From a virus (lineage: Duplodnaviria; Caudoviricetes), in IMG/VR virus record IMGVR_UViG_3300044712_000786, positions 1 to 64,000 of that record: 64,000 bases of DNA; one strand, 5' to 3'. Positions 40,557 to 62,633 of the stretch are shown here, in pieces. Made by a program: the position numbers and the translations under genes. The notes beneath the pieces were generated by a model. It saw only the letters and a list, made by a program, of their open reading frames with translations, did no database searches and was not told where the DNA came from. Within the stretch, counting starts at the first letter, position 1; each line of letters opens with the position of its first letter.

Positions 40557-40561
40557 TGTAA
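40556..40561 (+). promoter_or_regulatory. GTGTAA putative late promoter (neck genes)
   Basis: GTGTAATAAAAGTATATG. Confidence 0.7.
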
Positions 40562-40570
40562 TAAAAGTAT

Positions 40571-42094: not shown

Positions 42095-42942
42095 TGAAGG
42101 CGCAATATAAAAATAAGTTATTGTCGAGTTTTACGTTATGGTTTAACCATCAGTTACTATCTGAAGGGGAAGCTTTCAAAAATCATGGTTCGTATTTTTA
42201 TCCTACTAATCAGATTTTTAATGGATTCCATACATATGCCTGCCCTTTTAATCAATTGGTCTCTGATTCTTCTATAAGTGGGGCACAGGTTCCCACTGGG
42301 CTTTATGTTAATAATGTCTTTGTTACTTCTGGCGTAAGTGGTTTCCATGGAATAGATTACGAGAGAGGCAGAGCTTATTTTACCTCTCCTTTACCTAGCA
42401 CCGCTAAAGTTTCTGGCAACTACGCATATAAAGAAGTTAATGTTGTCTTAAGTAACGAGCCAGAAGAAAAATTATTGTTCGAAACTAAGTATTCCCCTCG
42501 TTCTCCCATAGGTAAGACACCAACTGGACTCTTCTCTAACGAACTTACGTATCCCGTTGTTTTTATTAAATATTTTAAAAATACAAATACCCCCTTTGCT
42601 TTAGGTGGAGACGATAACTCAACCAGTCAAATCTCAGCTATTGTTTTAGCTGATTCAGACTTTACTCTTGATGCTATTACTTCGATTTTCGAAGATAAGG
42701 CTAGGACTATAGTACCCCTATTTAGCCCTAACGAATATCCATATAACTATTATGGTGAACTTAGAAGCGGATTTAACTATACCGCAGCTTCCGAGAATAA
42801 AGATTATGCCTTTATAGATGACTCTAGCTCAACATATTTCAGCCCTAACTTCCAAAATAGGATAAGAGAAGTTAACCCTAATCTATTCTTAGGTGTAATA
42901 GATTTTGTTGTGACTAAAGTCCGTGCCCCTCGAACAGATTAA
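42094..42942 (+). CDS. Putative tail terminator protein
   Basis: Immediately upstream of the tail tube gene; LTYPVVFIKY...PFALGG pattern. Confidence 0.45.
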   Translation: MKAQYKNKLLSSFTLWFNHQLLSEGEAFKNHGSYFYPTNQIFNGFHTYACPFNQLVSDSSISGAQVPTGLYVNNVFVTSGVSGFHGIDYERGRAYFTSPLPSTAKVSGNYAYKEVNVVLSNEPEEKLLFETKYSPRSPIGKTPTGLFSNELTYPVVFIKYFKNTNTPFALGGDDNSTSQISAIVLADSDFTLDAITSIFEDKARTIVPLFSPNEYPYNYYGELRSGFNYTAASENKDYAFIDDSSSTYFSPNFQNRIREVNPNLFLGVIDFVVTKVRAPRTD

Positions 42943-42996
42943 TTTTCACAAAAAAACAAAAATAATGTAATACTCATTAACAATAGGATTTAAATT

Positions 42997-44121
42997 ATGG
43001 CAAGAAATCGTGTTATTTACCAGTCTGAAGGCGTGTTCGTTGGTCAAAAGACCCCTTGCACTGGCGACCACTACCCCGCAGATATCAAAGAAATTTATCG
43101 TGTACAAAGCGCGAACTACTCTTTCAACCTTAATAAGCGTGACGTTAACCAGTTTGGTGAACTAGCCGCTATTGATAGAGTCGTTCTCGACCCTCCCACT
43201 GTTTCCCTTGACGCTACTTATTTGCTCGCAAACGCTTATAATGAGAACGCTTTGGGAATGAACGTTGCCGTTGCTGGAACTGCTACTTGGAGCAATGCTC
43301 TAACTGGTATTCTTGGCGGCACCACTGACCAAAAATGTATTTGGGTGAAGACAGTTGCTTATGGCTCCGACCTTCATAACCTTAATACTACTGGCGCTTC
43401 AGTAACTCCTTTCGGCGTTATTGGCTTTGGTAATGGTTATTTAAGCTCATATTCTGTTGATGCTTCGGTTGGTGATTTTCCTCGCGCTAGCGTTCGTTTC
43501 GACGCATCAAACGTTAAGTTCGATAACTTTACTGGCGGTGGATTTACTAACTATGCAACCCAAGCTTTAGTAAGCCCCGCTATTTCGATTACGGACGGCA
43601 CGCTTATTAACTCTAAGTATTGGTTGCCTTCTGGTGTTTCGACTACCGACGCTACGGATAAGACTACTGTGTTACGTCCCGGTGACCTTGTGTTTGATTG
43701 GGCTAGCGCAACTGGCTTCATGGGAGCTAACCTTGCTGACGCTAAAATTCAGAGCTTCTCGATGTCTGCTGACGTTGCTAGAACCCCGCTGAATCGTCTT
43801 GGCACTAAGTTCCCATTCTCATACGAAATTAATTTCCCTATTAATGCTACGTTGAGAGTGTCGGCTAACGTTGGTGATATGAATACTGGCTCGCTTACTG
43901 CCCTAGTTAGCGATACTGGTAGCTTCGACCTGACCGTTAAGATTAATAAGCCGGGTACTACTACCGTTGCTTATGCTGCCGCTCTTAAGGGCGCTCAGCT
44001 TGACTCTCAGGAATATAGCTCGTCCATCGGTGATAACAAATCCGTTAACTGGAGCTTCTCGGTTCCTATCGGTGGCGTTAACGATGTTACTAAGGGCTTG
44101 TTCATCAGTGGTTTGCTGTAA
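42997..44121 (+). CDS. Major tail tube protein
   Basis: Highly expressed codon bias like MCP; RVQSANYSF...VNQFGELAAIDR; followed by a terminator; lies upstream of chaperones and TMP. Confidence 0.75.
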   Translation: MARNRVIYQSEGVFVGQKTPCTGDHYPADIKEIYRVQSANYSFNLNKRDVNQFGELAAIDRVVLDPPTVSLDATYLLANAYNENALGMNVAVAGTATWSNALTGILGGTTDQKCIWVKTVAYGSDLHNLNTTGASVTPFGVIGFGNGYLSSYSVDASVGDFPRASVRFDASNVKFDNFTGGGFTNYATQALVSPAISITDGTLINSKYWLPSGVSTTDATDKTTVLRPGDLVFDWASATGFMGANLADAKIQSFSMSADVARTPLNRLGTKFPFSYEINFPINATLRVSANVGDMNTGSLTALVSDTGSFDLTVKINKPGTTTVAYAAALKGAQLDSQEYSSSIGDNKSVNWSFSVPIGGVNDVTKGLFISGLL

Positions 44122-44142
44122 TTAATCTAAGTTAATCAAAAG

Positions 44143-44177
44143 TAAGCTCGATTTTCCAAAATCGGGCTTATTTTTTT
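44143..44177 (+). terminator. Intrinsic terminator after tail tube gene
   Basis: TAAGCTCGATTT-TCCA-AAATCGGGCTTA 12-bp stem (one G-U) followed by T7. Confidence 0.8.
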
Positions 44178-44194
44178 CCCCTTTATCTAAAACA

Positions 44195-44200
44195 GTGTAA
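44195..44200 (+). promoter_or_regulatory. GTGTAA putative late promoter
   Basis: Directly after the tail-tube terminator. Confidence 0.65.
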
Positions 44201-44224
44201 ATCTGATTGGTAAAAGGTCTATCT

Positions 44225-44527
44225 ATGGATACGGATGAAACTCGTTTAAAGGAATACGCATTATTCCATATAAATCGAAAAGTTGTTAATCTCTACAAAC
44301 AATTACTATTTGTTTTAGAGGACGTTCGAGACGAAAAGTATAACATACAAGATGATAGAATCTATCAAATTACCAGAAAGCGAATATTAGATTTGGGGAA
44401 TGACACTATTAGAGAAATAGAAGAGCACTTTAAATTTTTAGAGCTAAATGTCAAAAATGAATATAGAGAATGTCATCAGACAAAGATTAAACCTTCAGAG
44501 CACGCAAAGGGCGCTGGAGGAATTTAA
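44225..44527 (+). CDS. Hypothetical protein
   Basis: ATG at 44225 after AAAAGGT is a likelier start than the TTG at 44207; GTGTAA upstream. Confidence 0.55.
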   Translation: MDTDETRLKEYALFHINRKVVNLYKQLLFVLEDVRDEKYNIQDDRIYQITRKRILDLGNDTIREIEEHFKFLELNVKNEYRECHQTKIKPSEHAKGAGGI

Positions 44528-44672
44528 CGTTTCCCCTAAAATAGACTTTATAAAGTCGAGCACTTTCGCTATAATTTATAGAACATGGACCGTAGAAAAA
44601 CAGAAAAAGTTTTTAATCAAATTGGGCGGTCATGTTAATTTAAAAGAAACGGAATCATTTATAAACAGGTAA
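44457..44672 (+). CDS. Small hypothetical protein overlapping the previous gene
   Basis: Fills the gap before 44678 with a protein-like sequence; start uncertain (44448 or 44457). Confidence 0.4.
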   Translation: MNIENVIRQRLNLQSTQRALEEFNVSPKIDFIKSSTFAIIYRTWTVEKQKKFLIKLGGHVNLKETESFINR

Positions 44673-44677
44673 AAGGC

Positions 44678-45424
44678 ATGAAAAAACTACATGAATTCAC
44701 AGTAAACAAAGAACAAGAAGTTGACGAAGCTATTGTTAGCAAAGACGAAAAGGGTCAGGAAATTACCACTATTACTAAGGTAAAGAAGCCCGTTCCCCAA
44801 AAGTTTTTCCTAGCTAAGCCAACTCGTTCCTTATATGACGAAGCGGACCTATTCTACGCCGTAAAGCTATCTGAAGGCATTAAGGCGGGGCTGCTAACTA
44901 AACCCCTGCTGGCTAAGCGTTATGCTAACGATGGCGGCTCCATGAGCGAACCAGAAAAGCAAACCTACGCTAACTTATATGTTAATCTGTTTGAAAAGCA
45001 GAGCGAATATCAGAAATTTATTTCCGAGAAGCCTGAGACAGAGCGCACGGCAGAAGATAAAGCTAAGATTAGCGAGATTCTTAAGGATTTAACTAATCTT
45101 CGTCAGCAAATTCAAGAATTTGAGCTATCTCAATCTAGTTTGTTCGACCAAACCGCCGAAAGCAGAGCTAGGAATAAGACTATCCTTTGGTGGGTTCTTT
45201 TCCTTTGTCACAAGGTAGAAGGGGATAAAGAGCTTCCCTATTTCGGTGAAGGGGACTATGACTCTAGGCTAGCTAAATATGACGAGATAGAAGAAATAGA
45301 AGACCAGTTCGTTACTGATACTGTGTCCAAGTTCCTTTACTACGTAAGTTTCTGGTATATGGGTAAAGCGTCCAATCCCGAAGATTTTGCCATGTTAGAT
45401 AAGCTCCAAGAAGAAAATAAATAG
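44678..45424 (+). CDS. Putative tail assembly chaperone
   Basis: Acidic helical protein between tail tube and TMP. Confidence 0.5.
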   Translation: MKKLHEFTVNKEQEVDEAIVSKDEKGQEITTITKVKKPVPQKFFLAKPTRSLYDEADLFYAVKLSEGIKAGLLTKPLLAKRYANDGGSMSEPEKQTYANLYVNLFEKQSEYQKFISEKPETERTAEDKAKISEILKDLTNLRQQIQEFELSQSSLFDQTAESRARNKTILWWVLFLCHKVEGDKELPYFGEGDYDSRLAKYDEIEEIEDQFVTDTVSKFLYYVSFWYMGKASNPEDFAMLDKLQEENK

Positions 45425-45429
45425 TCCTA

Positions 45430-46434
45430 ATGTTCGATAAGTTTCAAGAAGTTAAATTAAAAATAGCTCTCTTTGAAATTATTCGGGGGTTTACAGTAAT
45501 TGACGTAGGTAGGCATAAGTCTATCTACGTCAAACACTTTACATTCATCGATACTGCCAGTATTGATTTAAAATATGCCGAAGCTTACAAATTCGCTATA
45601 GGTAAAGGCTTGCCCCTTATAGACGAACAGATAAAAACCGCTATTGGCAATAATACATGGACGGAAAAACAGGAAAAAAGATATTCGGAAATTCCCGCCG
45701 AAATCAATACTCTTAAACTAACTAAATCTAAGCTATTTTTAAAAAGGGAACTAGACTCTATTAACTCCGAAATAGAGACGCTGGAAAAAGAGCTTCTTCG
45801 CTTGGAGTATGAGCGTTCTGAGGTAGTAGGTTATACAGCGGAAATATTTGCTACTAAAAAAGCAAATGAACATGCTATTTATTACTCATTCAGGGGTAAG
45901 AACTTAGATACATTTTACTTCTCGGAAGAAGAATACGAAACCTTCTCCAACGAAGAAATTAGCAATCTTATCGTGGGACACGCAGGTTATGTAGCCAAAT
46001 TTACTCCGAAAGAAATGAAGCGTATAGCTATTTCTACGGCTTTCATGAATATGATATATCTAGCTGGAGAAGATATCATGTCATTCTTCGGGAAACCCGT
46101 CTTAGAGCTAACTAATAGACAGATGGAAGTCTATAATTTAGGGCGTTATTTCAAAAATCTAATGGCTGAATATAAGGGAACTATTACGGATGATTTACTA
46201 GCGGACCCAGATAAGTTTATCGAAGCGGCAGAAAATACCAAAACAGCCCAAAATTTCGCAGATAAATTAGATAATAAAGAATCTTCTGGAACAGCTATTG
46301 TAGGCGCTACTAAAGAAGATATCGAAAAACTAGGACTTACTAAAGAAGCTGGAACCATCAGTTTGGCAGACGAAGCCTCTAAAAAGGGCGGCAGCTTGAG
46401 TATGGAAGAGTTAATGAAACTCCACGGATATTAA
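45430..46434 (+). CDS. Putative tail assembly chaperone (second)
   Basis: Immediately before TMP; coiled-coil segment. Confidence 0.45.
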   Translation: MFDKFQEVKLKIALFEIIRGFTVIDVGRHKSIYVKHFTFIDTASIDLKYAEAYKFAIGKGLPLIDEQIKTAIGNNTWTEKQEKRYSEIPAEINTLKLTKSKLFLKRELDSINSEIETLEKELLRLEYERSEVVGYTAEIFATKKANEHAIYYSFRGKNLDTFYFSEEEYETFSNEEISNLIVGHAGYVAKFTPKEMKRIAISTAFMNMIYLAGEDIMSFFGKPVLELTNRQMEVYNLGRYFKNLMAEYKGTITDDLLADPDKFIEAAENTKTAQNFADKLDNKESSGTAIVGATKEDIEKLGLTKEAGTISLADEASKKGGSLSMEELMKLHGY

Positions 46435-46478: not shown

Positions 46479-49400
46479 ATGAACTTAGACGGAAAATTAG
46501 TAATTGGTGCGGACGTAACCCCAGCCCTTAATGAGATAGTAAGGATGGCGGGTAAGCTGCCCCCCTTCAAAATTAGAGTAGACACCCGAAATTTCCCATT
46601 AGGCTCAATGGCGAAATCGGCTGACCAGTTTGCTCAATCCATTCAGGCCGCTAATCAACGTGTGTTAGCTTTCGGAGCTTCGGCGGGAACCATTTACGCA
46701 ATAGAAAAAGCTTTTAGATTCCTAGTATCTTCTACTATCGAAGTAGAAAAGAGACTTACTGAAATCAATGTAATTTTGGGGGCTTCTAGCTCGAACTTAA
46801 AACAATTCAGTAATGAATTATTTAACATTGCCAAAACGACTGGTCAAAGCTTTGATGAAGTATCTAAAGCAGCCCTAGAATTCAGCCGTCAAGGTTTGGG
46901 AGTAACTGAAACTTTAAAAAGAACTCGTGACGCCCTTATCCTGACCCGTCAAACTGGTATTGATGTTGGCGAGGCGGTTAGCGCCATCACCGCTACTTTA
47001 AACAGTTTTACTAAAGCTGCTTATGATTCTACTACGGTAATTAATAAGTTAGCTAAAGTTGACCAAAACTTTGCTGTTAGTGCAGGCGACTTAGTCGAAG
47101 CTATTAAGCGCGTAGGTAGCTCCGCTGAAGACGCGGGAGTTTCCTTGGATGAACTTATCGCTATGGTAACCTCTGCTCAACAGATTACCGCTCGTGGAGG
47201 TTCTGTTATTGGTAACGCCTATAAGACTATCTTTACTAGGTTACAACGTCCTGAAGTATTGAACCAGTTAGAGGAAATTGGTGTAGCCGTTAGAGATAAC
47301 AGTAACGCTATTCTTCCCGCTATTAAAATACTGGAGAACTTCTCTAAGTCCTATGATAACCTTAATCAGTCTCAGAAATCCGCCGCTACTGAATTAGTCG
47401 GTAGCGTTTATCAGATTAACGTTTTAAAAGCTGGATTGAAAGACTTGGGGAGTAGCTATTCTTTCTACGAAAGAGCTTTAAATGACTCCGCTTCCGCTAC
47501 TGATGAAGCTATCCTTCGTAACGAGAAGATGAATAAGTCTATCGCTGCAATGGTGAACTCTACTAAGGAAAGTTGGAAACAACTTTCTGCTGATATTGGC
47601 GAGCAAGCTATTGGCCCAGCTATTAAAAGGGCTTTGGGGGCTTTTGATTTTGCTGCTGGTGGATTAAGCGAACTCTTTTCCAAAAACAAGGGCTCTGGAG
47701 AACAATCAGTTAATATTGGTAAAGACATCGGTCAAGGAATTCTAAAGGGACTTTCTCAATTTATAGAAGGACCGGGATTAGCTTTGGTTGGCTTAGTAAT
47801 GTTTCGCTTCGCTAAAACATTTACTAAATTTGCGATTGATTCTGCTAAAGTAGTTGGCGAACTTAATAAAAATATAGAAAATCGGGCTATCTTGGAAAGC
47901 GAAATTGCGACTGTTTTAGCTCAACAACCTAAAATCTACGAAAGACTTCTAAGCGGAGAGATTACCCGAGAACAAGCGGAAAGGGAAGTTCTTACTATTA
48001 TTAGAAATCAAAATGCCGCCTTAGATATCCAAAAGGGTATTATTACTAGCATGGGAACTTCTATTTCTACTCGTGGAGCAGCGGCAGTTACAAGAGATAA
48101 AAAGGTTGTTGTGGCTGCTTCTAGAGGATACATCCCAAACTTCGCAAACCCCGTTCTTACTGAAAGGGCGGGGGCTTACAAAGCTGGTTACGTGCCGGGA
48201 AAAGTTAAACTTTTCGAAAATAAAGTCATTAATGATGCGGAAAGAGTTATTCCTCCTTCTAATCTAAAAAATCTGGGCTCGACAGCTAATACTTCTGCCA
48301 TCGTCCCTCCTTTAGCTAGCCCCGCTGGACAGGTTTATAAAGCTGCTTTTAAGACTATGTCGGGAGTAGATTTAGCTACTGGACAAAAGGGTTTCATGTA
48401 TGGAAGAAATTACTTTCAACGCGAATGGATTAAAAGCACGGCTAAAAATAGAAAGCTGAGCGTTAATGACCCCGATGTTATTATGACTTTGGGGAAGGAA
48501 TTCGCGAATAAATATGGAACTAAACAGGGGTTCCTTGCTGTAAATAAAGGTTTTGTACCTAATTTCGCGCAGTACCAGTATCCTACCATTGCTGCTATAA
48601 GGAAGCAGCGTCCTCAATTAGGGGATATCTTGAAAAATGCTCCTACAGTTTGGGGGCAGGCTACTGGACAGAGATTCCTTAATCATGATTTGACAGGCGA
48701 TAAAATCCCCATCAGCTATAGAGATAATATTAACTTAGGGGATATGATGAATAACATCCTAGCGAAAGGTAAATTCAGGGCTAGTGAGGGATTCGTTCCT
48801 AGTTTCGCTTCCTTTAAAGAATATAAGGGTATCGGTCTAACCGCCAGAGTCCCCGATAGCGAAATCCTTGACCCCGAAGCTGCTTCAAAATTTGCTCAAA
48901 AACTTTCCTTAGATGGAAACGTATCTACTTTGCTGAAAGTTATTCGTAAAGTTGCACCTAAAAGCCCCGCGCTCGAAGATAATTCTTTGAAATTTGAAGT
49001 AAACTCGGGACTTAGATTTGGTAACGATTTTAAAGCTAGTGGCTTATATCAGTCTGATAATGATACAATATCTATATCCTCTTCTGCTAGAAGCCAGACC
49101 CTAGCTCATGAAATGGGGCATATGGTAGATATATCTTCATTCAGTGATTTTTATAAACAGTCGGGTTTTTCAAGAAAAAAACTTATCAACGCATTAAGAA
49201 GGGACCAAATAAAGTTTAAATCTCGACCTTATTTAATGACTGGAGCTTTTGACGGAGACATGGTTAGAGACATGCTAATGATGTATAGAAGCCCAGATAA
49301 AAGAAATAAGGAAGCTATTGCTGATATTTTTGCGGATTCTGGAAGGATATTCAATCCCAAAATGGAGGATTATAGTCATAAAAAGTATCTAACTACTGGT

Positions 49401-52400
49401 GAAGCGCCGAAAATGATTCGCAAAGGGATTAAGAAAATATTAGGATTAAAATCTAGCGGATTTATTCCTAACTTTGGACCCATCAAAGACCCCTATAAGG
49501 TAAATCCTATTTATCATGTACTAGAGACGATTAGAAAATCAAGTGGCAGCGATTATCAAAATAATTGGGGTGAGCCCATAAACTACGATGAGAGACAAGA
49601 AGAGAATAAAAGACTAATAGCTTCTGTAAAATCTATCGGTTTTGCAGGCTACGGAATCAAAAGTGATAATAAAGATTACCAAATTGGTTCTATGTTTGCC
49701 CCTTATGCTATAACTACTGGATATGAAGAAAAGGAGGTGGCTAAATACATCCCCATGGATAAACTGAAGGCGGCTGGGCTATCCGAAAGACGTATTTATA
49801 AAATGCTCTTTAAAGGAGATAGACTGAGTTCTCGTTTCCAGCAGTATAACGACCCCTTTTCTATCGAATCCTCTCAGGCAAAAATACGCAGAGCCAAAGA
49901 GGGTATCGCCGTTAAAAAAGCCTCTGGAAATACTATAAACCTAAATGCTGCAACATATCTAGCTAGCCGAATGAAGGAAAATAGTCAAGATAAGTGGGCT
50001 CAGCAAAACGCTATTAGCGAAGCTCTTAACACTATAGTTCCTTATCCAGAGCTACAATCTGAGAAACAGGAAGGAAAGGTAGTTAAACAATATCTTAGTT
50101 CAGGCGACAATAAATATAAGCGCGGTTCCCTTAAGGAAACCAAAGAAAAGCTTATGCAATATTTTGGAATCAAAGTAAACAAAACAGACGCCGCAGGAAT
50201 GTTATCTGAGAAACGTCTACTAAGAAGTTTAGGTTTGGCTTCTCGTGGAAGCCCAACTTTAGCAGAGGACAGGGGGCTAGAGCTTAATGACTATAAAAAT
50301 AATCAACAAAGACGTATAACGGTCTCTTCTAAAATAGGTCAATATAGAAAAGAGTTAGAAATAGCTTCTTTAGTTGATAATCCTATATCTCCCGCGATGT
50401 CTTTAGATGACTATAGGCGTTATATTTTAACGCACGGCGCTACTCCAACTACCCCATTTTCGAGGGTAATTACTCAGTTACAAAGGGCGTCTGCTAAGGA
50501 GGACAAGGGGGATAGAAAAACTAATCTAGAATATGCATTACGAAGTATAGCGGGGGGAAGTGTATCATCCACTGCCACAATTAGAAATTTGCCGCGCCTA
50601 AATAAAATATTTCCAGAATTGAAATTGACAAATAAAGAAATTATTAGAGCTTTCAAAAATTCCACTTATGGAAAAATATTCCGACCCGCAGAACAAAAAC
50701 CGTCTATTTTAGGTCAAACGATGGAGTCCCTTAAGGCATTTAAAGGCTTTAGGTCAACTCAAGCAAAGGCTAGATTAGGTAGAGGGGAAGTAAAAGGCGT
50801 TACTCAAGATATGTTCAATTCGGATATAACCCCTTATGCATCATTCTCTATTATTCAAAGGGAAACCCCTAAAAATATACAAGATATCTTATTTAATCTA
50901 GAAAAATCATTTGCCGACAGAGTCAGTCAATCCAAGCTGCTATTTAGAGGCTCTAGTATAATTGAGCCAATGCTAGTTAATCTATTAGGTTCATTTACTT
51001 CTCTAGGAGGTAGGACAGACGAAAAAAGAATAAGGTCTTATCTTACTTCTTCTATTGTAAAATCCGCTAGTTACGGACTTAGCTCTCCGATAGGGGATAA
51101 AAAAGGCGTAGTAAGCATTTATTCTCGACCAATATTGGAAAATTTAGGACTGCTTCAATCTGGTTTAGTTCCTAGTAATGAACAAGCTAATTCTGTTGTT
51201 GCAGAAAGGCTACATAGAAAAGCTTTAATGGGGGTATTAAATCTAGAGAATGGCAGACTGCTTAAGCCAAAAGACTTCATGTCTTCAGTAAGAGATATAG
51301 AAATACCAGAAGAACTGATTCAATTTAATAGGGGACTAAACGAGTTAGCTTCTGGCTCTATTATAAATCGAGCAAGTCCTAAAATAACCTCCACTCCGAT
51401 GGGCGGGGTTATGAACCTATATCGAAAAGTAGAAACAAGTGGAATGACGCCAAGACAAAAAGATTTTAGAGGGCCTAAAACACCGCTGCCTTTCGAAGAT
51501 ATAAAGGGCTGGGATAGCGAGCGAATGGTTAAATACCTACGAAGTTCTCTAGGTGATACTGAAAGGGGAGTAGCTCCATTTGGTTCAGAACATTCTTCTT
51601 ATTTCGATTTAAGATACATGTCTTTTACTGATAGGAAGATGAGAAAAGATATTGCAGAAGGTAGAGTTAGTCTTCAAGATTACTCTTCTATTATTTTCCA
51701 AAGAAAAGTTCCCGTTCAGGAACTTGTAACCCCAGAAAACTTGGGCGATATAATGACTTCTGGGGAAGCTACTAAAAAGAAAATATTTGATAGGGGCGTG
51801 TTTTTTGACCTTCCTCGGTTTAGAGATAAGTTCGGAATTAGTGAACATACTTCAGAACGCGAATATCCATTTTTAACAACTGCTCCCGCTGGAAAAGTAT
51901 CTAACTTCGGTAAAATTTTCGGGCTTTCGAGAAGTAAGGGATATGTTCCTAATTTTGCCTATATTCCCGGCATAAGTCAATTAGCTGGAAGACTACTTAC
52001 TAATATAACTCATACCGAAAGCTATGGGTTAAAAGAAAGAATGGATTCCATCAAACAATTAAAACTTAAAGACTATATTGGGGCTCTGGTAAAAGATATA
52101 CCTACCCCCGCTGCATCCCCTAAAGGAGAGGTATGGAATACTTACGATAGGGATATCCTATTCCGTTCGGTCTTTAAATTGCCACATAGAGTTCTAATGC
52201 CCGAAAATCAAGACTTTCTTAAGTCTAGAAAATTAGTTAAAACTTCTGATAGTACATATAGGTTGACTAACAAAGGACGCATACTAAGTAATGCTTTACA
52301 AAGTCTATCTCAAGGCAAGTATGCTCCACAACCTAATAACCCCAACGAGCTTTATATTCTAGGCCAAAATAAAACTATGGGGGGTTTTGACTTTACGATT

Positions 52401-55400
52401 AACAAAGACCAAAATAAGGTCGGCTATCATGACCTTTGGGATTTCGCCAAAAACCCTTGGGAAAAATTCGATTTCAAAGGCGCGCTAAGTTTTGCTGGCC
52501 AATATGCTAAAAGCGTAGTTAAGAATCGTTCTTTTGGAATGACTGACGAATTAAGGTCTCACCCCTTTGTAGCGGAAGATAACTCGATGTATCGCCAAAG
52601 CCCAGCTTCTATGTTGGCTAGAATGGCAATTAGTCCGTTTGCTAGACCTGTTCGAGTTCAAGACTCTTTCTCCCCTCTAAGTAAAGAGAAAGTAGAAAGA
52701 CTGCAAAAACTCAAGTCCTCTTCTTCATATGGAAGCAAGAGACATAAAGTTTATAATCAAGCTCTAACAGATGATAGCCTAGTAAAGCAACTGCTAGAAC
52801 TAGCAAAAAATCCCCCTCCTTCTGTAGGCATAATGAATAAAGGCTTTGTTCCTAATTTCGTTCTACCCAACAAGGGTTTCTTGGGCTCTCCATTCCCGTT
52901 TGAAGACTTCAGAAAGCTTAAAACGCTTGAAGAGCAATATAAGTTCATTAAAAGCGAGTTTCCTAAAGTGGGGCTAGCTAACCATCCTATTGGCGAGGGC
53001 TCTTCTCGCGCCGTTTATGGTATCGGCGGTAATATGGTATTAAAAATGGTTAAAGATACCAAGCATATTATCGATGGATATAAAAGCCACCCTCTAAACG
53101 AAGCTATTAGACAGAAAGTTTTACTAAAAGGATTTGCTCAAAATCAAACAGAGGGAAGTCAAATGTTTGCTGGCTTCCGAGACATTGTTCCTTATAACTA
53201 TGAAGTAGACGATAGATTCAAATACATCATAGCCGAAAGAGCAGCGGCAATGACCCAAGCAAATGCGGTTAAATTCGGTTATCCATCTGTTTCCGATGCT
53301 CTATATGAGCCCCGCTTCCGTAGGAGACTTACTTCTCTTTATAAAACGGGAGTAATTCCAGATGAAGGTTCTAAAAACTTTGGATTTATAAGGAGAGGGG
53401 GAGAAAATAGACCCGCGTTAATCGACTATGGATTAGACACTCAAACAGCTAAAAATCTATATGGTTTTACTGGGCAGGATTTTATTTCTAAGGGTTTAAT
53501 CCCGAATTTTGCTATAGAGTTTAAGGATAGAAAGCGCATCTATAAGACAGGCTTTGGTGGAGATACAGAGTTTCTAGAAAAGGTTCTATCTAAAATTAGC
53601 CCCGATACATCCTTACTGCAAGCTACTATTCATGGTAGTAGAGACGAATTATTGCAGCGAGTTACCCCAGCGGAATTAGAAGAAATTCTCGCGCTTAAGA
53701 ATATACCTATTAATAAAGACACTATTGCTCATATTAATATAGTAAAAACCCGTTTCGGTAATCTTCCTCATACCTTTGGTATTCAGCAGAAACTTTCTGG
53801 AAGCACGGCCCCCCTTGTGGTTGTTCCTTCGTTCCCAGACCCAGTAATTAACGCTGAAACTGGATTAGGCACTAAAGAAGGTAGGGGAACACTTATTAAT
53901 ACTATCCTAACGAGAAATCCTCGCGGAGAAGGAATAGTTCGCCCATCAGTAGATAGATTTGGACAGATAATGAAGATTCTCCAAGATAAATGGGGTAATA
54001 CTACAGAAGTTATTGGACTAGAAAGAGCTAGGCAGATGTTCGGCCTAAACGCAAAAAGGAAGGCTAGTGGATTCATTCCTAACTTTGCTGACCCGCTTAA
54101 ACTTGCTATAGCTCGCGAAATAGCCGCTGGTGTTCCAGCTAGCTTAATTAAAGTAGAAAATCACGCAAGTCTTAAGAGCGCAAATAATCCATTGGGATTA
54201 GCGGTTACCAATAAAAGAGACGAGCCCAACGGAGTATCCCAAGGTATTTCCCGCGCTATACGCGAGGGAGCTAACCCTAAAACTTATGGTAGCGGTAGGG
54301 TTCCCAACTTTGCTGACCAACCCCGAATTCTAACTGGCTTAAAGGGAATTTTACAGTCTAATCCCGCAACCGATGCTAACTTCAATCAGGGAGTTAGAGA
54401 CGAAATACTAGAAAAAGCTAAGACCCTAGTATTAAAAATGAAAGATAGTCAGGTTCCTATTGGGGAACTCGGGGTTCAAGCAGATAAGGCAGTTAAACAG
54501 TTTACCAAAATGGTAGCTGGTTTGACTAAGTCTCAGGAAATGATTGACTCATTTTCTAAGTCAATTAGTTATTGGAAGAGAGAAAATCAGAAGAACCGCC
54601 CTTCTACTCCGCTGAAGAATCAAGCGGATATTGGGGCTGGATTAGCTGCCCAAAATGCTTTAGAAGCCGAACTTCAAGCAAAAAGACAAGCTCAAGAAGA
54701 AAGAACTCAAAAGAGAAGATTAGATGCTCAAAGTTTCAAAGAAAAGACAATTACATCTACAGTAGGGCGCATTAATCAAGGCGAATTTATTCCTAATATA
54801 AGAAAGCCTATTTTGGCAGATGAAAGAGTAAGCGGAGCCCTGAAAAATCAAGCGATTTCCGTTGTCTCTGATGGAGGATTTGTATTAAGTGGGGATAGGA
54901 AGAAATACTATGACTGGTTAGCGAAGAACGATAAACAAGCCTTCAGGGGCGCTAAACAAATGAGAAACGCTAATCTCCAAAACAGAGCCTTTGGAGTAAG
55001 TTTCGGGGCTTCTATGGTTGGTGGACTAGCTAGCCAATTTATTGGTGACGCTACTCAAGAAAGAAGAGGATATAGTAAAGCTGTCGAAGGTGGGGCTAAC
55101 ACTCTAGCTATGGGAGCATTAGGCTTTCAGGTAGCTGGGCCAGCAGGAGCATTAGCTTTGGGTGCTGTATCGGGATGGGGTGCTGTTACGGATACTATTA
55201 AAGCCTTTAATGACACTCTTCCTGATTTACAAAAGAATCTGGAAGCTGTAACCGAAAGGTCTACAAGGACTTCAGACGCATTTAGTAAGTTCATACAGAC
55301 TAGCGAACAAATCAATAGTATTTTACTAAGTCCTAAACCGGGAGCAGCTAGAGAGTTACAACGCTTACGCACTCAACAATCTTCGGCGCTCGCAGATATT

Positions 55401-58400
55401 CCAGATAGAGACTCATTTGGTAAGTCTGCACGACAAGACCTATTAGACGCATTTAAAACTGGCGACGTAAACAAACAAATCGAAATCTCCGAAAGAGTAG
55501 CTAAGAGAATAGGAACAGAGAAAACCGCTGCCGAATTAGAAACTGGCTTTGCCGAATATCTTGACAAAAATAAGAAGATAAACAGCGAGGGATTTAGCCG
55601 AATTGACAGCTTTGAAAGGACTCTAAGGAGTTCTGTTAATAAGCAGGGATTAACCTTTGACCAATTCTTAGCTACTAATCCCGGCTCCTTAGACTATATT
55701 AAAAGCTCTGGAAGCGCCGAACAAATGGATTCTCGCCTAAGGGAATTAATTAATAAATTCGACCCTAGCTTTAATACTTCGTTTTCTGGAGCATTAAATA
55801 AACTATTTACAGAAGAAGGACCGCTTAAGCAGAACGCATATAAGAGAGTATTTAGCGGAGCTACTAACGAACAATTGGATAGCGAGCGAAAAGCCCTTGA
55901 ATTAATGAATAGAAATCAAGTAGAAAGCGCTAAATATATCGAATCCTTCGGTAATCAAGTTTTCTTAACTAAGGAAAAATTCCGCTCATTTACTGATGAT
56001 ATCGTCGCCTCGATGGAGAGGTTTAATGCTAATCTGCAAGCCGCAAATGAAAGAATAGATATATTCGGTAAGGGTCTAATTGATTTAAATGAACCTTCCT
56101 TGCGCCCCGAGGGACAACTAAATATTAGTCAGGGATTTAGAGATATACAGACAAAAGCGCAAGCCCAATCTCAATTTTCTCTAATTCAGAAACAGTTTGA
56201 ATCTGCTATGAGCGCTGCCCTAACTAAGGCGGAAACCCAAAGGTTCGACGCATTTGAAAAGTTAATGGGCGAAAAAGCTGGTGTTCTAAGTGGCGCTCAA
56301 CAAGTATCTAACGCCGCTTATACCAACGTTCTTTCTGGCGGTGACTTACTACAAAAACTAAACAATATTAATAATAGGACCGAAGTAACGGGTGGATTAT
56401 CTGAGATTAACAAAATTAATCAAGAATCTATCAGAAACACTTTAGAGGAATTTAACAAGATTGCCCGAGAAAAAGATAGCTCTATTACTGCTTTAATAGA
56501 TACTACCGCTAATAAGTTAGCCGCTCTTGATTTAACCAAGACTTTGGAAACTAGCCGCCTTAACTTGAATCAAAAGTTGAATTACGGGGGCGGGTTATCC
56601 GAAATACTAAATGGTAATATCAAAGCCCAGATGGTTCAGCTAGGAACCTCCGCTAATGTAGCTAATACTCTTAGAAACAGCACTGCTCCCGGTGAAGTAG
56701 CTTATCAAAGGGCTGAAATTCTTAAGAAATTCAACGTAGAAGTTCCCGAAAGCCTTAGGAAAGAACTATTTACAGAAAGTAAAAAGAATTTAACTCAAGC
56801 TGGTTTTTCGATTCCCGATGAGGTAATTCAAAAACAAATAGATTCTACATTCCCTAAATCTGACCCAGAGCGAGAAGCTAAAATAATTAAAGCTATGGAG
56901 GAAATGGCTAAACTAAGCCTCGCTGCTGTAAATGAAGAGTCATTAATCAAGCAAACCGAGCTAAGTATTGCTACTCAAACCCAGATTAACACTAAGAATA
57001 TATCTGATGGAATAGCACAAATATTAAAAGATGGATTGAAGGTAAGCGAATCTAAGAACACTAAAGATAGTCCCGCTCCTAGCTCATTTGAAATGCCAAT
57101 GTCTTGGGACATGCCTGCTAATCCGATGCTAAAGTATGATATTGGCTCAGTTTCTAAATCTATTAAATCTAAGGAAGAAGAATTTAAGAAAATAGAAGAT
57201 AATCCTGTAATGACTGTAATGCAGCGCGAAGGATGGTCTCCGTTTGCCGAAGCTAAACCTAAAAAACTTTATACTTTTTCTGATTTAAGGGAGATGGAAA
57301 GACTACAGGGAGAAATTGATAAAGATAAAACGACTCTTGCTAAAATCAAATTAGACGCCGCCAGAAATCAAATCTCTATTCCGTTTGGAATGTCACAAGA
57401 CTGGGAAGATAGCAAACCTAGCAAAATTACCCCTAATATAGGAACAACGAAAGCTAACTTAGGTTATTACGGAGGGATGGCTTATGATTTACCGATGCCG
57501 ATGACCCCTTCTCTGCCAGTCTATAATAACAAGAATATTATTACTCTAGCGGAAATTAAAGCTAAACAAATTAACGCAGCTAACGAAAAGAACTTCGGGG
57601 ATGTTATAAGGGAAGGACCGTTGCCTATTTCAACTACGGACCCAACTGCTCGACCACAAGCTAAAAATACTAGATACGCGGCAGAATTAAGACAGAGAAT
57701 AGAATTAGACGCCGCTACTAAAGATTATATAGCTAGCACGAAAGAATTAACAGAAGCTATGTATGGTGCCGTTGGAGGTTTTACTACCTTTAATGATACC
57801 ATTATCTCTACTCAAAAAACTCTAATTGACTTTGCGGGGTCAGTAAAAGAAGGTTTCCATGACTTAATTGGCTTAGCTATAAGAGGAACGGGCGATATTG
57901 AGGAAAGATTCCGCGAAATGTTCGAGGAAATACTTAATAAAGCCGCAACAAATATGGCTTCTAGCGGACTTGACTTTGTATTTAGCCAAGTTACTAAGGG
58001 TATTGGAGTTGAAAGCCTATTCAAGAATAAGGGCGGTTATATTCCTCGATTCTCTGAGGGTGGAGTAGTAAGAGGGGGTTCGGGAACTAAAGACGATGTT
58101 CTAGCTCAGCTTAGCGGCGGCGAATACGTTATCAATAGGTCCGCTGCTGAAAAAATTGGTTATAAAAACCTAGAAGCAATTAATAAAGGAGGTTCTTCGG
58201 GCGGTCCTTCTAACTGGGACGCTTTTGGGGCTGCTGGTGGAGCCGATTCATTTATTAATCAGCGCTCTAGCGGGATTACCGCTCATTTACAGAATGCTTA
58301 TCGATATAATGACCCTCGTCAGCCAACTGCTGGAGAGGTTGTAGTTGACCCTAGGTTGTCTATCCAAGCTCTAACTGACATGGATAATCCTCAAAGCAGG

Positions 58401-59213
58401 ATTAGAATGGAAAGGGAAGAGAATCTATTAAACTACATAACAGATAAACAAGATTTTCAAAAAGCCCAAGACAAGGCTCAGAAACAGTATAAGGAAGGTC
58501 TATGGTGGAGCTTTGGAACATCTTTAGCTGGCGCTGCTGGCAATACTTGGGCAGCGGGAGCTAAACCTAATACTTTAGGTGGCAAAGACTTTAAGGGAGC
58601 TTATGATACCTCTACTTCGGCTGAAGGCGCTGATTGGTCTAATCCCGGCTTTGAATACGAAAGATTCCAGTGGGATAGTAGTGTATCTCGCAGACCCCTA
58701 ACCCGTAATTCGGGAGGTTCTATCAATTCTAAGACAGCTTTATTAACTGGGGGCGAATATGTTATGTCGCCTGCTACTGTAAGCCGCCTAGGGGTGTCTA
58801 GAATGAATACCTTGAACGCTGGACACGTTCCCACTTTCGCTCTAGGAGGGCTTATGGGCTCTTCTAACGCTGGAAGCTCTCCAGACTCACTTAAGGAGTC
58901 TATAGACAAGCTAGTAGCCGTTTCCCAAGAGATACGGGGCACCCTAGAGGGTAAGGATACTAAAACGGGTAATAAAGATTCGGCACCCGCTATATCCAAT
59001 AACGTTAATATAACTATTTCTGTTACTCAGACTGGAAAAGTCAACTCAGACACTCAAGTTTCGTCTGGTGCAGGGGCTTCCGAGAAGGAAGACAAGAATA
59101 AGAAGCAGGACGAATACAAGAAACTTGGTATGATGATTGAAAACAAGGTCTTGGAAGTTATTGTTCAGGAGCAGAGACCGGGGGGTCTGCTTTATGATTC
59201 CGAATCTCGTTAA
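46479..59213 (+). CDS. Giant tape measure protein (TP901-type N-terminus) carrying a polyvalent effector-like cassette array
   Basis: N-terminal TP901-family pattern (FNIAKTTGQSFDEVSKAALEFSRQG...GGSVIGNAYKTIFTRL); C-terminal GG..G.G...D...A.L..GEYV motifs; internal motif-delimited domains. Confidence 0.9.
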   Translation: MNLDGKLVIGADVTPALNEIVRMAGKLPPFKIRVDTRNFPLGSMAKSADQFAQSIQAANQRVLAFGASAGTIYAIEKAFRFLVSSTIEVEKRLTEINVILGASSSNLKQFSNELFNIAKTTGQSFDEVSKAALEFSRQGLGVTETLKRTRDALILTRQTGIDVGEAVSAITATLNSFTKAAYDSTTVINKLAKVDQNFAVSAGDLVEAIKRVGSSAEDAGVSLDELIAMVTSAQQITARGGSVIGNAYKTIFTRLQRPEVLNQLEEIGVAVRDNSNAILPAIKILENFSKSYDNLNQSQKSAATELVGSVYQINVLKAGLKDLGSSYSFYERALNDSASATDEAILRNEKMNKSIAAMVNSTKESWKQLSADIGEQAIGPAIKRALGAFDFAAGGLSELFSKNKGSGEQSVNIGKDIGQGILKGLSQFIEGPGLALVGLVMFRFAKTFTKFAIDSAKVVGELNKNIENRAILESEIATVLAQQPKIYERLLSGEITREQAEREVLTIIRNQNAALDIQKGIITSMGTSISTRGAAAVTRDKKVVVAASRGYIPNFANPVLTERAGAYKAGYVPGKVKLFENKVINDAERVIPPSNLKNLGSTANTSAIVPPLASPAGQVYKAAFKTMSGVDLATGQKGFMYGRNYFQREWIKSTAKNRKLSVNDPDVIMTLGKEFANKYGTKQGFLAVNKGFVPNFAQYQYPTIAAIRKQRPQLGDILKNAPTVWGQATGQRFLNHDLTGDKIPISYRDNINLGDMMNNILAKGKFRASEGFVPSFASFKEYKGIGLTARVPDSEILDPEAASKFAQKLSLDGNVSTLLKVIRKVAPKSPALEDNSLKFEVNSGLRFGNDFKASGLYQSDNDTISISSSARSQTLAHEMGHMVDISSFSDFYKQSGFSRKKLINALRRDQIKFKSRPYLMTGAFDGDMVRDMLMMYRSPDKRNKEAIADIFADSGRIFNPKMEDYSHKKYLTTGEAPKMIRKGIKKILGLKSSGFIPNFGPIKDPYKVNPIYHVLETIRKSSGSDYQNNWGEPINYDERQEENKRLIASVKSIGFAGYGIKSDNKDYQIGSMFAPYAITTGYEEKEVAKYIPMDKLKAAGLSERRIYKMLFKGDRLSSRFQQYNDPFSIESSQAKIRRAKEGIAVKKASGNTINLNAATYLASRMKENSQDKWAQQNAISEALNTIVPYPELQSEKQEGKVVKQYLSSGDNKYKRGSLKETKEKLMQYFGIKVNKTDAAGMLSEKRLLRSLGLASRGSPTLAEDRGLELNDYKNNQQRRITVSSKIGQYRKELEIASLVDNPISPAMSLDDYRRYILTHGATPTTPFSRVITQLQRASAKEDKGDRKTNLEYALRSIAGGSVSSTATIRNLPRLNKIFPELKLTNKEIIRAFKNSTYGKIFRPAEQKPSILGQTMESLKAFKGFRSTQAKARLGRGEVKGVTQDMFNSDITPYASFSIIQRETPKNIQDILFNLEKSFADRVSQSKLLFRGSSIIEPMLVNLLGSFTSLGGRTDEKRIRSYLTSSIVKSASYGLSSPIGDKKGVVSIYSRPILENLGLLQSGLVPSNEQANSVVAERLHRKALMGVLNLENGRLLKPKDFMSSVRDIEIPEELIQFNRGLNELASGSIINRASPKITSTPMGGVMNLYRKVETSGMTPRQKDFRGPKTPLPFEDIKGWDSERMVKYLRSSLGDTERGVAPFGSEHSSYFDLRYMSFTDRKMRKDIAEGRVSLQDYSSIIFQRKVPVQELVTPENLGDIMTSGEATKKKIFDRGVFFDLPRFRDKFGISEHTSEREYPFLTTAPAGKVSNFGKIFGLSRSKGYVPNFAYIPGISQLAGRLLTNITHTESYGLKERMDSIKQLKLKDYIGALVKDIPTPAASPKGEVWNTYDRDILFRSVFKLPHRVLMPENQDFLKSRKLVKTSDSTYRLTNKGRILSNALQSLSQGKYAPQPNNPNELYILGQNKTMGGFDFTINKDQNKVGYHDLWDFAKNPWEKFDFKGALSFAGQYAKSVVKNRSFGMTDELRSHPFVAEDNSMYRQSPASMLARMAISPFARPVRVQDSFSPLSKEKVERLQKLKSSSSYGSKRHKVYNQALTDDSLVKQLLELAKNPPPSVGIMNKGFVPNFVLPNKGFLGSPFPFEDFRKLKTLEEQYKFIKSEFPKVGLANHPIGEGSSRAVYGIGGNMVLKMVKDTKHIIDGYKSHPLNEAIRQKVLLKGFAQNQTEGSQMFAGFRDIVPYNYEVDDRFKYIIAERAAAMTQANAVKFGYPSVSDALYEPRFRRRLTSLYKTGVIPDEGSKNFGFIRRGGENRPALIDYGLDTQTAKNLYGFTGQDFISKGLIPNFAIEFKDRKRIYKTGFGGDTEFLEKVLSKISPDTSLLQATIHGSRDELLQRVTPAELEEILALKNIPINKDTIAHINIVKTRFGNLPHTFGIQQKLSGSTAPLVVVPSFPDPVINAETGLGTKEGRGTLINTILTRNPRGEGIVRPSVDRFGQIMKILQDKWGNTTEVIGLERARQMFGLNAKRKASGFIPNFADPLKLAIAREIAAGVPASLIKVENHASLKSANNPLGLAVTNKRDEPNGVSQGISRAIREGANPKTYGSGRVPNFADQPRILTGLKGILQSNPATDANFNQGVRDEILEKAKTLVLKMKDSQVPIGELGVQADKAVKQFTKMVAGLTKSQEMIDSFSKSISYWKRENQKNRPSTPLKNQADIGAGLAAQNALEAELQAKRQAQEERTQKRRLDAQSFKEKTITSTVGRINQGEFIPNIRKPILADERVSGALKNQAISVVSDGGFVLSGDRKKYYDWLAKNDKQAFRGAKQMRNANLQNRAFGVSFGASMVGGLASQFIGDATQERRGYSKAVEGGANTLAMGALGFQVAGPAGALALGAVSGWGAVTDTIKAFNDTLPDLQKNLEAVTERSTRTSDAFSKFIQTSEQINSILLSPKPGAARELQRLRTQQSSALADIPDRDSFGKSARQDLLDAFKTGDVNKQIEISERVAKRIGTEKTAAELETGFAEYLDKNKKINSEGFSRIDSFERTLRSSVNKQGLTFDQFLATNPGSLDYIKSSGSAEQMDSRLRELINKFDPSFNTSFSGALNKLFTEEGPLKQNAYKRVFSGATNEQLDSERKALELMNRNQVESAKYIESFGNQVFLTKEKFRSFTDDIVASMERFNANLQAANERIDIFGKGLIDLNEPSLRPEGQLNISQGFRDIQTKAQAQSQFSLIQKQFESAMSAALTKAETQRFDAFEKLMGEKAGVLSGAQQVSNAAYTNVLSGGDLLQKLNNINNRTEVTGGLSEINKINQESIRNTLEEFNKIAREKDSSITALIDTTANKLAALDLTKTLETSRLNLNQKLNYGGGLSEILNGNIKAQMVQLGTSANVANTLRNSTAPGEVAYQRAEILKKFNVEVPESLRKELFTESKKNLTQAGFSIPDEVIQKQIDSTFPKSDPEREAKIIKAMEEMAKLSLAAVNEESLIKQTELSIATQTQINTKNISDGIAQILKDGLKVSESKNTKDSPAPSSFEMPMSWDMPANPMLKYDIGSVSKSIKSKEEEFKKIEDNPVMTVMQREGWSPFAEAKPKKLYTFSDLREMERLQGEIDKDKTTLAKIKLDAARNQISIPFGMSQDWEDSKPSKITPNIGTTKANLGYYGGMAYDLPMPMTPSLPVYNNKNIITLAEIKAKQINAANEKNFGDVIREGPLPISTTDPTARPQAKNTRYAAELRQRIELDAATKDYIASTKELTEAMYGAVGGFTTFNDTIISTQKTLIDFAGSVKEGFHDLIGLAIRGTGDIEERFREMFEEILNKAATNMASSGLDFVFSQVTKGIGVESLFKNKGGYIPRFSEGGVVRGGSGTKDDVLAQLSGGEYVINRSAAEKIGYKNLEAINKGGSSGGPSNWDAFGAAGGADSFINQRSSGITAHLQNAYRYNDPRQPTAGEVVVDPRLSIQALTDMDNPQSRIRMEREENLLNYITDKQDFQKAQDKAQKQYKEGLWWSFGTSLAGAAGNTWAAGAKPNTLGGKDFKGAYDTSTSAEGADWSNPGFEYERFQWDSSVSRRPLTRNSGGSINSKTALLTGGEYVMSPATVSRLGVSRMNTLNAGHVPTFALGGLMGSSNAGSSPDSLKESIDKLVAVSQEIRGTLEGKDTKTGNKDSAPAISNNVNITISVTQTGKVNSDTQVSSGAGASEKEDKNKKQDEYKKLGMMIENKVLEVIVQEQRPGGLLYDSESR
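48126..54311 (+). repeat. Nine dispersed G-[FYLR]-[IV]-P-[NS]-F linker motifs within TMP
   Basis: Motifs start at 48126, 48549, 48789, 49458, 51939, 52842, 53493, 54069 and 54294. Related copies at 58035 (GYIPRF) and 58821 (GHVPTF). Confidence 0.9.
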
Positions 59214-60072
59214 TCTGTTCTCTTAAGCTGATAATCTCACGCTCAAGCATGTTAATAGCCTGATTATAAACAACATCTATAGTCAGGCTGTTTTGCATCA
59301 TCATAGGAAGCTCTAAAACGGGGGTAAAATCTCTCGAAATTGAATAGGGAGCCCTATTTACTAAATTTGGGTATAGCGTATTAAGAACAAGCTTCCATTT
59401 TTTAACAGATAGCTTGCCCGAAGATAGCCCTTCTTGGATAGGGTTACTTACTATAATAGTAGAAGTGTTATCCTGAGAGCTTAAGGAGGATACTTCGCGC
59501 TCTAATACGAGGGCTTCATCTAAAACGCTAAAGCTAATATCGAATACAGCCCCCTCTCCAGAGCCCCCCTTCATTTTACATTCTCCTTCAGGCGCTTTAA
59601 TATACAAACCTCTATTCTTTACCCCTATACGAGATATTACCCCACCTTCTTTGATGTTGGTAACGATTATCTTAGTAGAAAGATACTCCCCCTCTTTTAC
59701 GTCAAGGGAGGGTATGCCAGCATCTACGCTCAAAATATCCCCTACTTTATATCCAGAACCATTGTTAAGAATAGCGGTAACTATGTCCATTTCATACTGC
59801 GGGAAACTTAGAAAAATAGAATCCCCATATTGAAGCTTTGGAATGACATCTTCAGCTATGGAAATACATTTAGAATCTACTACCTTGAAATCCCAAGCTA
59901 ACTCTTCCTTTGAAGCGAAGTTAATGACATAGAAAGCATTCTCTTTATTGACCCGTAAATAGCTGCCTTCTCTGACCTTAGATAGGTCATCTAGGGTACA
60001 ACAATACGCTTCATTAGTATTGTTTTTAATCGAAAGAGAACTTCCGTTAAACAAACTTCGTGGATTAATCAT
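59158..60072 (-). CDS. Virion structural protein (baseplate/tail-associated)
   Basis: NNGSGYKVGDILSV...GGSGEGAVFD motif common in phage structural proteins; C-terminal coiled coil. Confidence 0.45.
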   Translation of the reverse strand: MINPRSLFNGSSLSIKNNTNEAYCCTLDDLSKVREGSYLRVNKENAFYVINFASKEELAWDFKVVDSKCISIAEDVIPKLQYGDSIFLSFPQYEMDIVTAILNNGSGYKVGDILSVDAGIPSLDVKEGEYLSTKIIVTNIKEGGVISRIGVKNRGLYIKAPEGECKMKGGSGEGAVFDISFSVLDEALVLEREVSSLSSQDNTSTIIVSNPIQEGLSSGKLSVKKWKLVLNTLYPNLVNRAPYSISRDFTPVLELPMMMQNSLTIDVVYNQAINMLEREIISLREQINEIRNHKADPPVSAPEQ

Positions 60073-62627: not shown

Positions 62628-62633
62628 TTACAC
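62628..62633 (-). promoter_or_regulatory. GTGTAA putative late promoter
   Basis: TTACAC on the + strand, 15 nt upstream of the ATG at 62612; overlaps the TAG of the upstream gene. Confidence 0.6.

Follow-up and report, generated by a model that had tools for sequence, protein, structure and literature searches.

Phage ADP-ribosyltransferases (ARTs) are known to reprogram the host as soon as infection begins, and the carriers described for them are head-internal or head-associated. The ART Alt of phage T4 is packaged in the virion, injected, and acts on proteins of the host before the phage genes are expressed (PMC9503650). The NAD-ADP-ribose (NAD-ADPr) survey treats head association only, and it finds ARTs in about 30% of myoviruses versus 3% of siphoviruses and podoviruses (PMC9503650). 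In the polyvalent proteins that phages and conjugative elements encode, ART domains are the commonest macromolecule-modifying enzymes, and an HExxH peptidase has been proposed to separate the domains from one another (PMC5512222). A cytoplasm-acting enzyme carried by a tape measure protein (TMP) is described for Thermus phage P23-45, where gp96, a TMP of 5002 amino acids (aa), is fused to a virion RNA polymerase, an association called previously unsuspected (PMC10770324). Here, we analyze the first 64 kb (64,000 nucleotides [nt], referred to as the window) of a complete 202,704-bp soil phage record with direct terminal repeats, IMGVR_UViG_3300044712_000786 (Duplodnaviria; Caudoviricetes), in which a single gene on the + strand, at 46479 to 59213, is predicted to encode a TMP of 4244 aa according to the list of open reading frames (ORFs) and their translations. 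We propose, with a probability of about 0.55, that aa 1440 to 1826 of this protein form a conserved module of two ART folds, here called blocks A and B, and that block B would be a mono-ART dependent on nicotinamide adenine dinucleotide (NAD+) which is carried and delivered by the TMP.

Compared with T4 Alt, this module follows the same concept, namely, a particle-borne phage ART delivered at infection, but Alt is a separate head-internal protein packaged via a capsid-targeting route, and the corresponding Pfam family PF03496 is not matched by the module. A first-pass annotation of the window, made from the sequence alone, had already called the carrier protein a tape measure. The profile matches at its N terminus bear this out, since PF10145 is found at aa 118 to 305 (E value of 6e-29) and phrog_4211 with an E value of 7e-49, and 13 PHROG TMP families are matched overall. 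Together with the great length of the protein and its place in the tail gene block, these matches lead us to assign it as a TMP. Its predicted layout consists of an N-terminal core, about 2060 aa of inserted cassettes (aa 550 to 2610), a long ruler, and a C-terminal TMP part.

Relatives of the module are few. When aa 1400 to 1830 were compared by HMMER with 1.84 billion representative proteins, ten sequences were found: the query itself, eight giant TMPs of 1518 to 5468 aa, all of which carry PF10145, and one sequence (P0007) which was set aside as an unrelated repeat protein. One of these TMPs (P0010) is truncated at its end and spans block A only. The alignments comprise 8 sequences for block B and 9 for block A. 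According to a local BLASTP map, aa ~1440 to 1826 represent the sole cassette common to all eight relatives, and blocks A and B occur together and in the same order in all full-length homologues. No match was obtained by tblastn against 50,697 phage records, a word-indexed protein search returned only the query protein itself, profile searches for a stand-alone block A or block B found none, and degenerate-pattern scans of IMG/VR and JGI metagenomes gave no relatives.

Block B, the second ART fold (aa 1638 to 1823; 51390 to 51947, + strand), was assigned on the basis of its AlphaFold2 model, its structural matches, and its invariant residues. The first-pass annotation had placed an ART domain of the R-S-E class at 51400 to 51900 from three motifs, and the 4244-aa ORF contains all of them in its reading frame. 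The first, NLYRKV, begins at aa 1646 and provides Arg1649 (51423 to 51425) on strand 1; RYMSFTD starts at aa 1712 and provides Ser1715 (51621 to 51623); and TSEREYPF starts at aa 1791 and provides Glu1793-Arg-Glu1795 (51855 to 51863), located before a late strand. The R and E elements proposed in that reading stood up to comparison, while the S did not. In the block B alignment, where identities range from 22 to 42% and just 8 of 193 positions are invariant, the invariant residues include L1647, R1649, G1697, L1755, E1793, E1795, and G1811. Strand 1 reads L-x-L-[YF]-R, with R1649 present in all eight sequences, and the stretch E1793-[RK]-E1795-[YF] is likewise kept in 8 of 8, while the last strand corresponds to a conserved N-[IF]-G-x-[IL] stretch. 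The Ser1715 column, instead, is not conserved, its residues being S, R, R, S, N, T, R, and A, and in the model this residue lies on a two-residue strand followed by a helix. Ser1706 is kept in seven of the eight sequences, and the Asp1718 column holds S or T in four and D or N in three.

The AlphaFold2 model of aa 1634 to 1826, built from the 8-sequence alignment, reached a mean predicted local distance difference test (pLDDT) score of 78.6 and a predicted template modeling (pTM) score of 0.76. We compared it by VIA-align, which is independent of Foldseek, with 48,161 representative solved chains. Only 50 chains scored at Z ≥ 2, and at least 46 of them belong to the ART superfamily, as judged by entry titles, so that structure prediction, named by the annotators as the check on an ART fold, returned a list dominated by ART-type matches. 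The best structures are TreX (Z of 5.2 over 102 aa), TccC3 (5.0 over 130 aa), EcPltA (4.5), and Scabin (4.3), and they are followed by pierisin-1 and heat-labile enterotoxin (both 4.2). Lower matches comprise pertussis S1, MTX, ParT, RES, CARDS, PARPs, diphtheria toxin, DarT, NarE, HopU1, and Tpt1, and the matches extend over model residues 5 to 190. In a second pass on 716 mixed chains ranked by Foldseek, all 41 entries listed at Z ≥ 2 were of ART type. The alignment offsets (cholera toxin residue 1 on model residue 10, heat-labile toxin 4 on 13, and pertussis S1 1 on 8) bring the catalytic Arg of all three toxins (R7, R7, and R9, respectively) onto model residue 16, which is Arg1649. By counting back from the alignment ends, pertussis E129 and cholera E112 are expected near model residues 163 and 166, respectively, while Glu1795 is model residue 162; Glu1793 and Glu1795 thus lie within about 1 to 4 residues of the position expected from the toxin catalytic Glu.

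On these grounds we assign block B to the ART superfamily fold with moderate confidence, the Z scores being low; because they are low, the assignment draws on the exclusiveness of the match list. At the level of predicted fold and motifs, block B resembles an R-S-E ART of the cholera/pertussis/TreX type. Like that of block A described below, its predicted fold matches the cholera, heat-labile, and pertussis toxins as well as TreX, TccC3, pierisin, and Scabin, with the strand 1 Arg at the R7/R9 position. The invariant Glu-x-Glu of block B lies near the position of the catalytic Glu of the R-S-E toxins, and an invariant Thr-Ser is found on strand 2 of block A. The module nevertheless has no detectable sequence similarity to these toxins, and block B carries long helical insertions, with 144 residues from the Arg to the ExE versus about 105 in cholera toxin. 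A further difference is that the R-S-E toxins are secreted or Rhs-delivered, whereas the module consists of tandem folds embedded in a phage tail protein.

Membership in the Alt/VIP2 family, with whose members the first-pass annotation proposed to compare a predicted structure, could not be demonstrated, since the nearest structures are of the cholera/pertussis/TreX/TccC3/pierisin type rather than of the VIP2/C3 type and PF03496, the Alt/VIP2-type model, had no match at E ≤ 10 in the Pfam scans of the segment and the 8 alignment members, nor when the genome was searched in six frames. Chains of the VIP2, C3, and iota families were absent from all of the structural lists, which does not exclude them at the fold level. 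The ART domain itself was retained, with the correction that 51400 to 51900 covers only the second half of a two-ART-fold module. As a side observation, the block B list also contained a weak match (Z of 2.8) to residues 1418 to 1614 of PDB 9k3a chain B, from the cyanophage A4 pre-ejectosome; because nearly all other rows of that list are ARTs, this ejection protein may also possess an ART-like domain.

Several observations weigh against the reading of block B as a TMP-borne ART. The lumen of a tail tube is not known to accommodate folded enzymes as large as these. The loose pattern [YF]R..S.[ST]..ExE has 4 starts in the TMP, compared with 2.3 ± 1.6 in 200 shuffles, and is by itself not above chance. 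An S-T-S element could not be identified in block B from the 8-sequence alignment and the model. Pfam gave no ART family match for the block segment or for any alignment member, with PF18760 (ART-PolyVal) and PF08867 (FRG) giving no match at E ≤ 10, and searches of PDB sequences by phmmer and by profile matched only a His-tag artifact. The block B model was built from only 8 sequences, and five such models span pLDDT values from 61 to 79. The Z scores do not exceed 5.2, in a range (under 8) where VIA-align warns that a match may reflect a common arrangement, and Foldseek against the PDB, AFDB clusters, and BFVD returned weak, mixed rows, none of them significant (E values of 0.02 or weaker). 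Finally, the mapping of residues in both blocks to those of the toxins is taken from alignment range offsets only. Beyond the ART models, Pfam and PHROGs applied to the segment and to all homologues detected no family other than the TMP core, and an Atlas feature search of aa 1600 to 1830 gave no usable family lead. Since the PF03496, PF18760, and PF08867 models fail, we do not file block B under Alt/VIP2, ART-PolyVal, or FRG.

Taken at their strongest, these points would mean that block B is not an ART at all, its motifs being coincidental and its fold an artifact of a shallow alignment: the pattern is at chance level, Z and the Foldseek E values are weak, and eight sequences without any sequence-level link are a narrow input. 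We consider this the least probable of the alternatives discussed here, given that an unbiased structure search returned almost only ARTs and that three toxins with different residue numbering place their catalytic Arg on Arg1649. Moreover, three of the four named residues are invariant, and the hypergeometric chance that three of four would fall on invariant columns is about 2e-4, so that residue conservation, unlike the pattern alone, exceeds chance.

Block A, the first ART fold (aa 1481 to 1599; 50919 to 51275, + strand), lies just upstream of the segment flagged in the first-pass annotation and outside it, and it was assigned from AlphaFold2, Foldseek, VIA-align, and its invariant residues. 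The AlphaFold2 model of aa 1440 to 1826 has an overall pLDDT of 74, and the block means over model residues 10 to 190 range from 56 to 96 and are mostly between 80 and 96. Every structural match to this model falls on model residues 42 to 160, corresponding to aa 1481 to 1599. The top Foldseek matches are Tpt1/KptA, with probabilities of 0.96 to 1.0, and VIA-align aligned Tpt1 with a Z of 9.5 and a root mean square deviation of 2.0 Å over 96 aa. Toxin matches followed, namely, heat-labile toxin (Z of 6.7), pertussis toxin and TreX (both 6.4), cholera toxin (in the range of 6 to 6.7), and Scabin (5.2). The AFDB clusters matched are enterotoxin, KptA, pierisin-like, and DUF952, and the Atlas clusters matched are small phage proteins, DUF952, and PTS_2-RNA, while the Pfam PTS_2-RNA model itself gave no match on block A.

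The conserved residues of block A are in line with this fold. Arg1490-Gly1491 (in LFRG, 50946 to 50951) on strand 1 and Thr1507-Ser1508 (in FTS, 50997 to 51002) on strand 2 are invariant in all nine sequences, and the offsets place cholera and heat-labile R7 and pertussis R9 on residue 51 of the aa 1440 to 1826 model, which is Arg1490. Before strand 5, an N-E-x-x-N-[ST] motif is found in seven of the nine sequences (N-E-x-x-N-S in the TMP studied here, with Glu1568 at 51180 to 51182 and Asn1571 at 51189 to 51191), and an acidic residue is nearby in the other two; a strict ExE was not seen in block A in any of the nine. According to the models, block A is the structurally clearer ART fold of the two. 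With respect to the minimal ART folds of Tpt1/KptA and DUF952, it superposes on the NAD lobe of Tpt1, but Arg replaces His on strand 1, Thr-Ser occupies strand 2, and the RNA lobe is lacking. Blocks A and B show no similarity in profile-profile comparison, and a recent duplication is therefore not shown. Co-folding of both blocks with NAD+ gave a score of 0.00 and hence no verdict, neither for nor against. Block A may represent either a second NAD+-using site or a partner or adaptor domain of block B.

The module might ADP-ribosylate nucleic acids, at DNA or RNA ends or on bases, as pierisin, Scabin, DarT, and Tpt1 do, rather than proteins. Pierisin-1, Scabin, MTX, DarT, and Tpt1/KptA are indeed found among the matches of the two blocks, the best match of block A (Z of 9.5) is the NAD lobe of an RNA 2'-phosphotransferase, and a TMP enters the cell along with the phage DNA. 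However, guanine-specific ARTs have Q-x-E and not E-x-E, and the Arg-His-Arg-Arg tetrad of Tpt1 lies mostly in the other lobe, which has no counterpart here, as only residues 88 to 183 of the Tpt1 chain align. We hold a nucleic acid target to be very unlikely.

It is also conceivable that catalysis has been lost in one of the ART folds or in both, and that they act in the TMP as structural elements, as adaptors, or in receptor binding, comparable to the N-terminal ART-like domains of binary toxins, which are inactive. The missing S-T-S in block B and the missing strict ExE in block A would fit such a role, as would the lack of a match to any sequence model of an active ART family, and tandem ART folds with one inactive copy are known from VIP2, iota, and C2I. 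On the other hand, the few invariant residues include those which, in active ARTs, bind NAD+ or act in catalysis (for block A, R-G and T-S; for block B, R and ExE), and a purely structural role can hardly explain their invariance. We regard this explanation, too, as quite unlikely.

The strongest of the competing explanations, which we still rate as unlikely, is that the module consumes NAD+, either as an NADase or by making or breaking small molecules derived from ADP-ribose, and thereby counters NAD+-based host immunity instead of modifying proteins. The best Atlas match of block B is an FRG-domain cluster (template modeling score of 0.56 over 148 aa); Frg is counted among the ART-superfamily proteins, and FRG is treated as a probable NADase or signal-generating ART clade (PMC9503650). 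Toxins of the RES, ParT, MbcT, and NatT types and RES and DUF2971 clusters also occur in the match lists, and Tpt1/KptA and DUF952, the nearest relatives of block A by structure, are not protein transferases. Against this, the invariant ExE and the strand with an aromatic residue followed by Arg are hallmarks of the R-S-E protein (arginine) transferases, and the top structures of block B are toxins that modify proteins or DNA. In addition, NADase-type ARTs are under-represented in phages (PMC9503650).

We return to the reading in which the module modifies proteins. Block B is most likely an NAD+-dependent mono-ADP-ribosyltransferase, as judged from the predicted fold and the conserved residues. 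Within the R-S-E clade, enzymes with an ExE mostly target protein arginine residues, and for this reason block B is probably arginine-directed.

The module is part of a larger cassette of 821 aa (aa 1000 to 1820; 49476 to 51938, + strand), which lies between two short peptides, here called joints, at aa 994 and aa 1821. The last ~390 aa of this cassette correspond to the two-ART-fold module, while the first ~440 aa, its N-terminal part, are shared only by P0003 and partly by P0002; aa 1000 to 1440 yielded no Pfam, PDB-sequence, or Atlas lead. The cassette is closed by the joint G-Y-V-P-N-F (aa 1821 to 1826; 51939 to 51956, + strand). Peptides of the form G-x-[IVL]-P-x-F occur 12 times in the TMP versus 0.11 expected from 500 shuffles, and since their codons vary between copies, they represent a signal at the peptide level and not a DNA repeat. 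Joints were located at aa 550, 691, 771, 994, 1821, 2122, 2339, 2531, and 2606 (48126 to 54311 in the window), fencing about nine cassettes between aa 550 and 2610, and in the C-terminal part at nt 58035 and 58821. The latter two run on into F-[AS]-x-G-G, which we take to be the usual C-terminal motif of TMPs.

In seven of the eight relatives, a joint likewise closes the ART module, and P0006 has none at that place. The adjoining cassettes come in a different order in P0002, P0008, and P0009: the segment at aa 1819 to 2207, which follows the ART module here, precedes it in P0002 and P0009, and the kinase-like cassette (aa 2117 to 2344) precedes it in P0008. No Pfam match was found for this kinase-like cassette at 52860 to 53492. 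Another cassette, bounded by joints at aa 771 and aa 994, contains the HExxH motif HEMGH (aa 877 to 881; 49107 to 49121, + strand) and has no Pfam match. As a candidate zincin peptidase, it could act in processing of the joints, a role suggested by the peptidases of polyvalent proteins (PMC5512222). In the cassette zone of P0009, we also observed weak reprolysin-type HExxH matches and a weak match to sigma-70 region 4.

Three observations on the TMP bear on a possible likeness to the polyvalent type, namely, about nine joint-fenced cassettes, an HExxH motif at aa 877, and a shuffled order in relatives. Like polyvalent proteins, it would be a giant virion-associated polypeptide with many effector-type domains, and its cassette order varies among relatives. 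It differs from them in that a specific G-x-[IV]-P-N-F peptide delimits its cassettes and in that polyvalent proteins are described as head-packaged (linked to MuF, portal, or DarB), with no mention of tape measure proteins (PMC5512222). Likewise, the ART-PolyVal, MPTase-PolyVal, and LPD Pfam families of that study do not match the TMP. The likeness to P23-45 gp96 lies in a cytoplasm-acting enzyme that is borne on a giant TMP and has been suggested to enter together with this protein, whereas gp96 has one N-terminal polymerase, no internal array of swappable cassettes, and no joint motif.

A mechanism can be proposed. Being part of the TMP, the module would sit in the tail and, for the same reason, would exit the virion before the DNA as the TMP passes into the cell envelope and cytoplasm during ejection. 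There, at an early stage of infection, its host target would be modified. As for the G-x-[IV]-P-N-F joints, they probably act as sites of processing or as hinges, which would free or expose the module, and, following the logic proposed for polyvalent proteins (PMC5512222), the HExxH cassette might be the one that cuts them.

Some further features of the TMP and its surroundings were recorded. The sole strongly hydrophobic segment of the TMP, rich in Gly and Ala, is found at aa 2876 to 2895 (55104 to 55163), just downstream of the cassette zone, and may be a part that inserts into the membrane. An antisense ORF of 79 aa at 51609 to 51848, nested entirely within the TMP gene, was treated as spurious. 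When 37467 to 46434 and the surroundings of the TMP gene were scanned with PHROGs, nearly all genes remained without a family, apart from a tail-fiber-like N terminus at 37467 to 40556 and a weak head-decoration match at 59158 to 60072. The tail-sheath model PF04984 had no match anywhere in the genome. The genes adjoining the TMP gene on the P0002 contig are closely similar in size and order to those of the window. On that contig, the second gene downstream of the TMP gene (447 aa, opposite strand) has PF18454 (Mtd_N), which is the N-terminal domain of the major tropism determinant in phages with diversity-generating retroelements. The window carries a 436-aa ORF on the opposite strand (62633 to 63943, - strand), which is the third rather than the second downstream of the TMP gene.

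A wider reading, which we put forward tentatively and hold to be possible rather than probable, is that the TMP acts as a general injection vehicle. It would carry a swappable array of host-directed enzymes, with the joints as processing peptides and the ART module as the cassette that all members keep, and this module would represent a new ART family, orphan in sequence, with two cooperating NAD+-type sites and delivery through the tail.

That a phage ART can be part of a multi-effector protein and be delivered by the virion is, as a concept, already known. Our literature search found no paper describing a TMP-embedded ART, a tandem ART-fold unit, or the joint peptide. Current sequence models detect neither of the two ART folds, and inventories of phage ARTs based on such models will therefore miss them. 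The proposed module raises the questions of how folded enzymes pass in or with the tail-tube protein and what role the joint peptides play. If true, an ART module in the TMP would add to the one documented example of a TMP bearing a cytoplasmic enzyme, namely, the virion RNA polymerase of P23-45, and would represent a second delivery route for phage ARTs, not yet described, through the tail.

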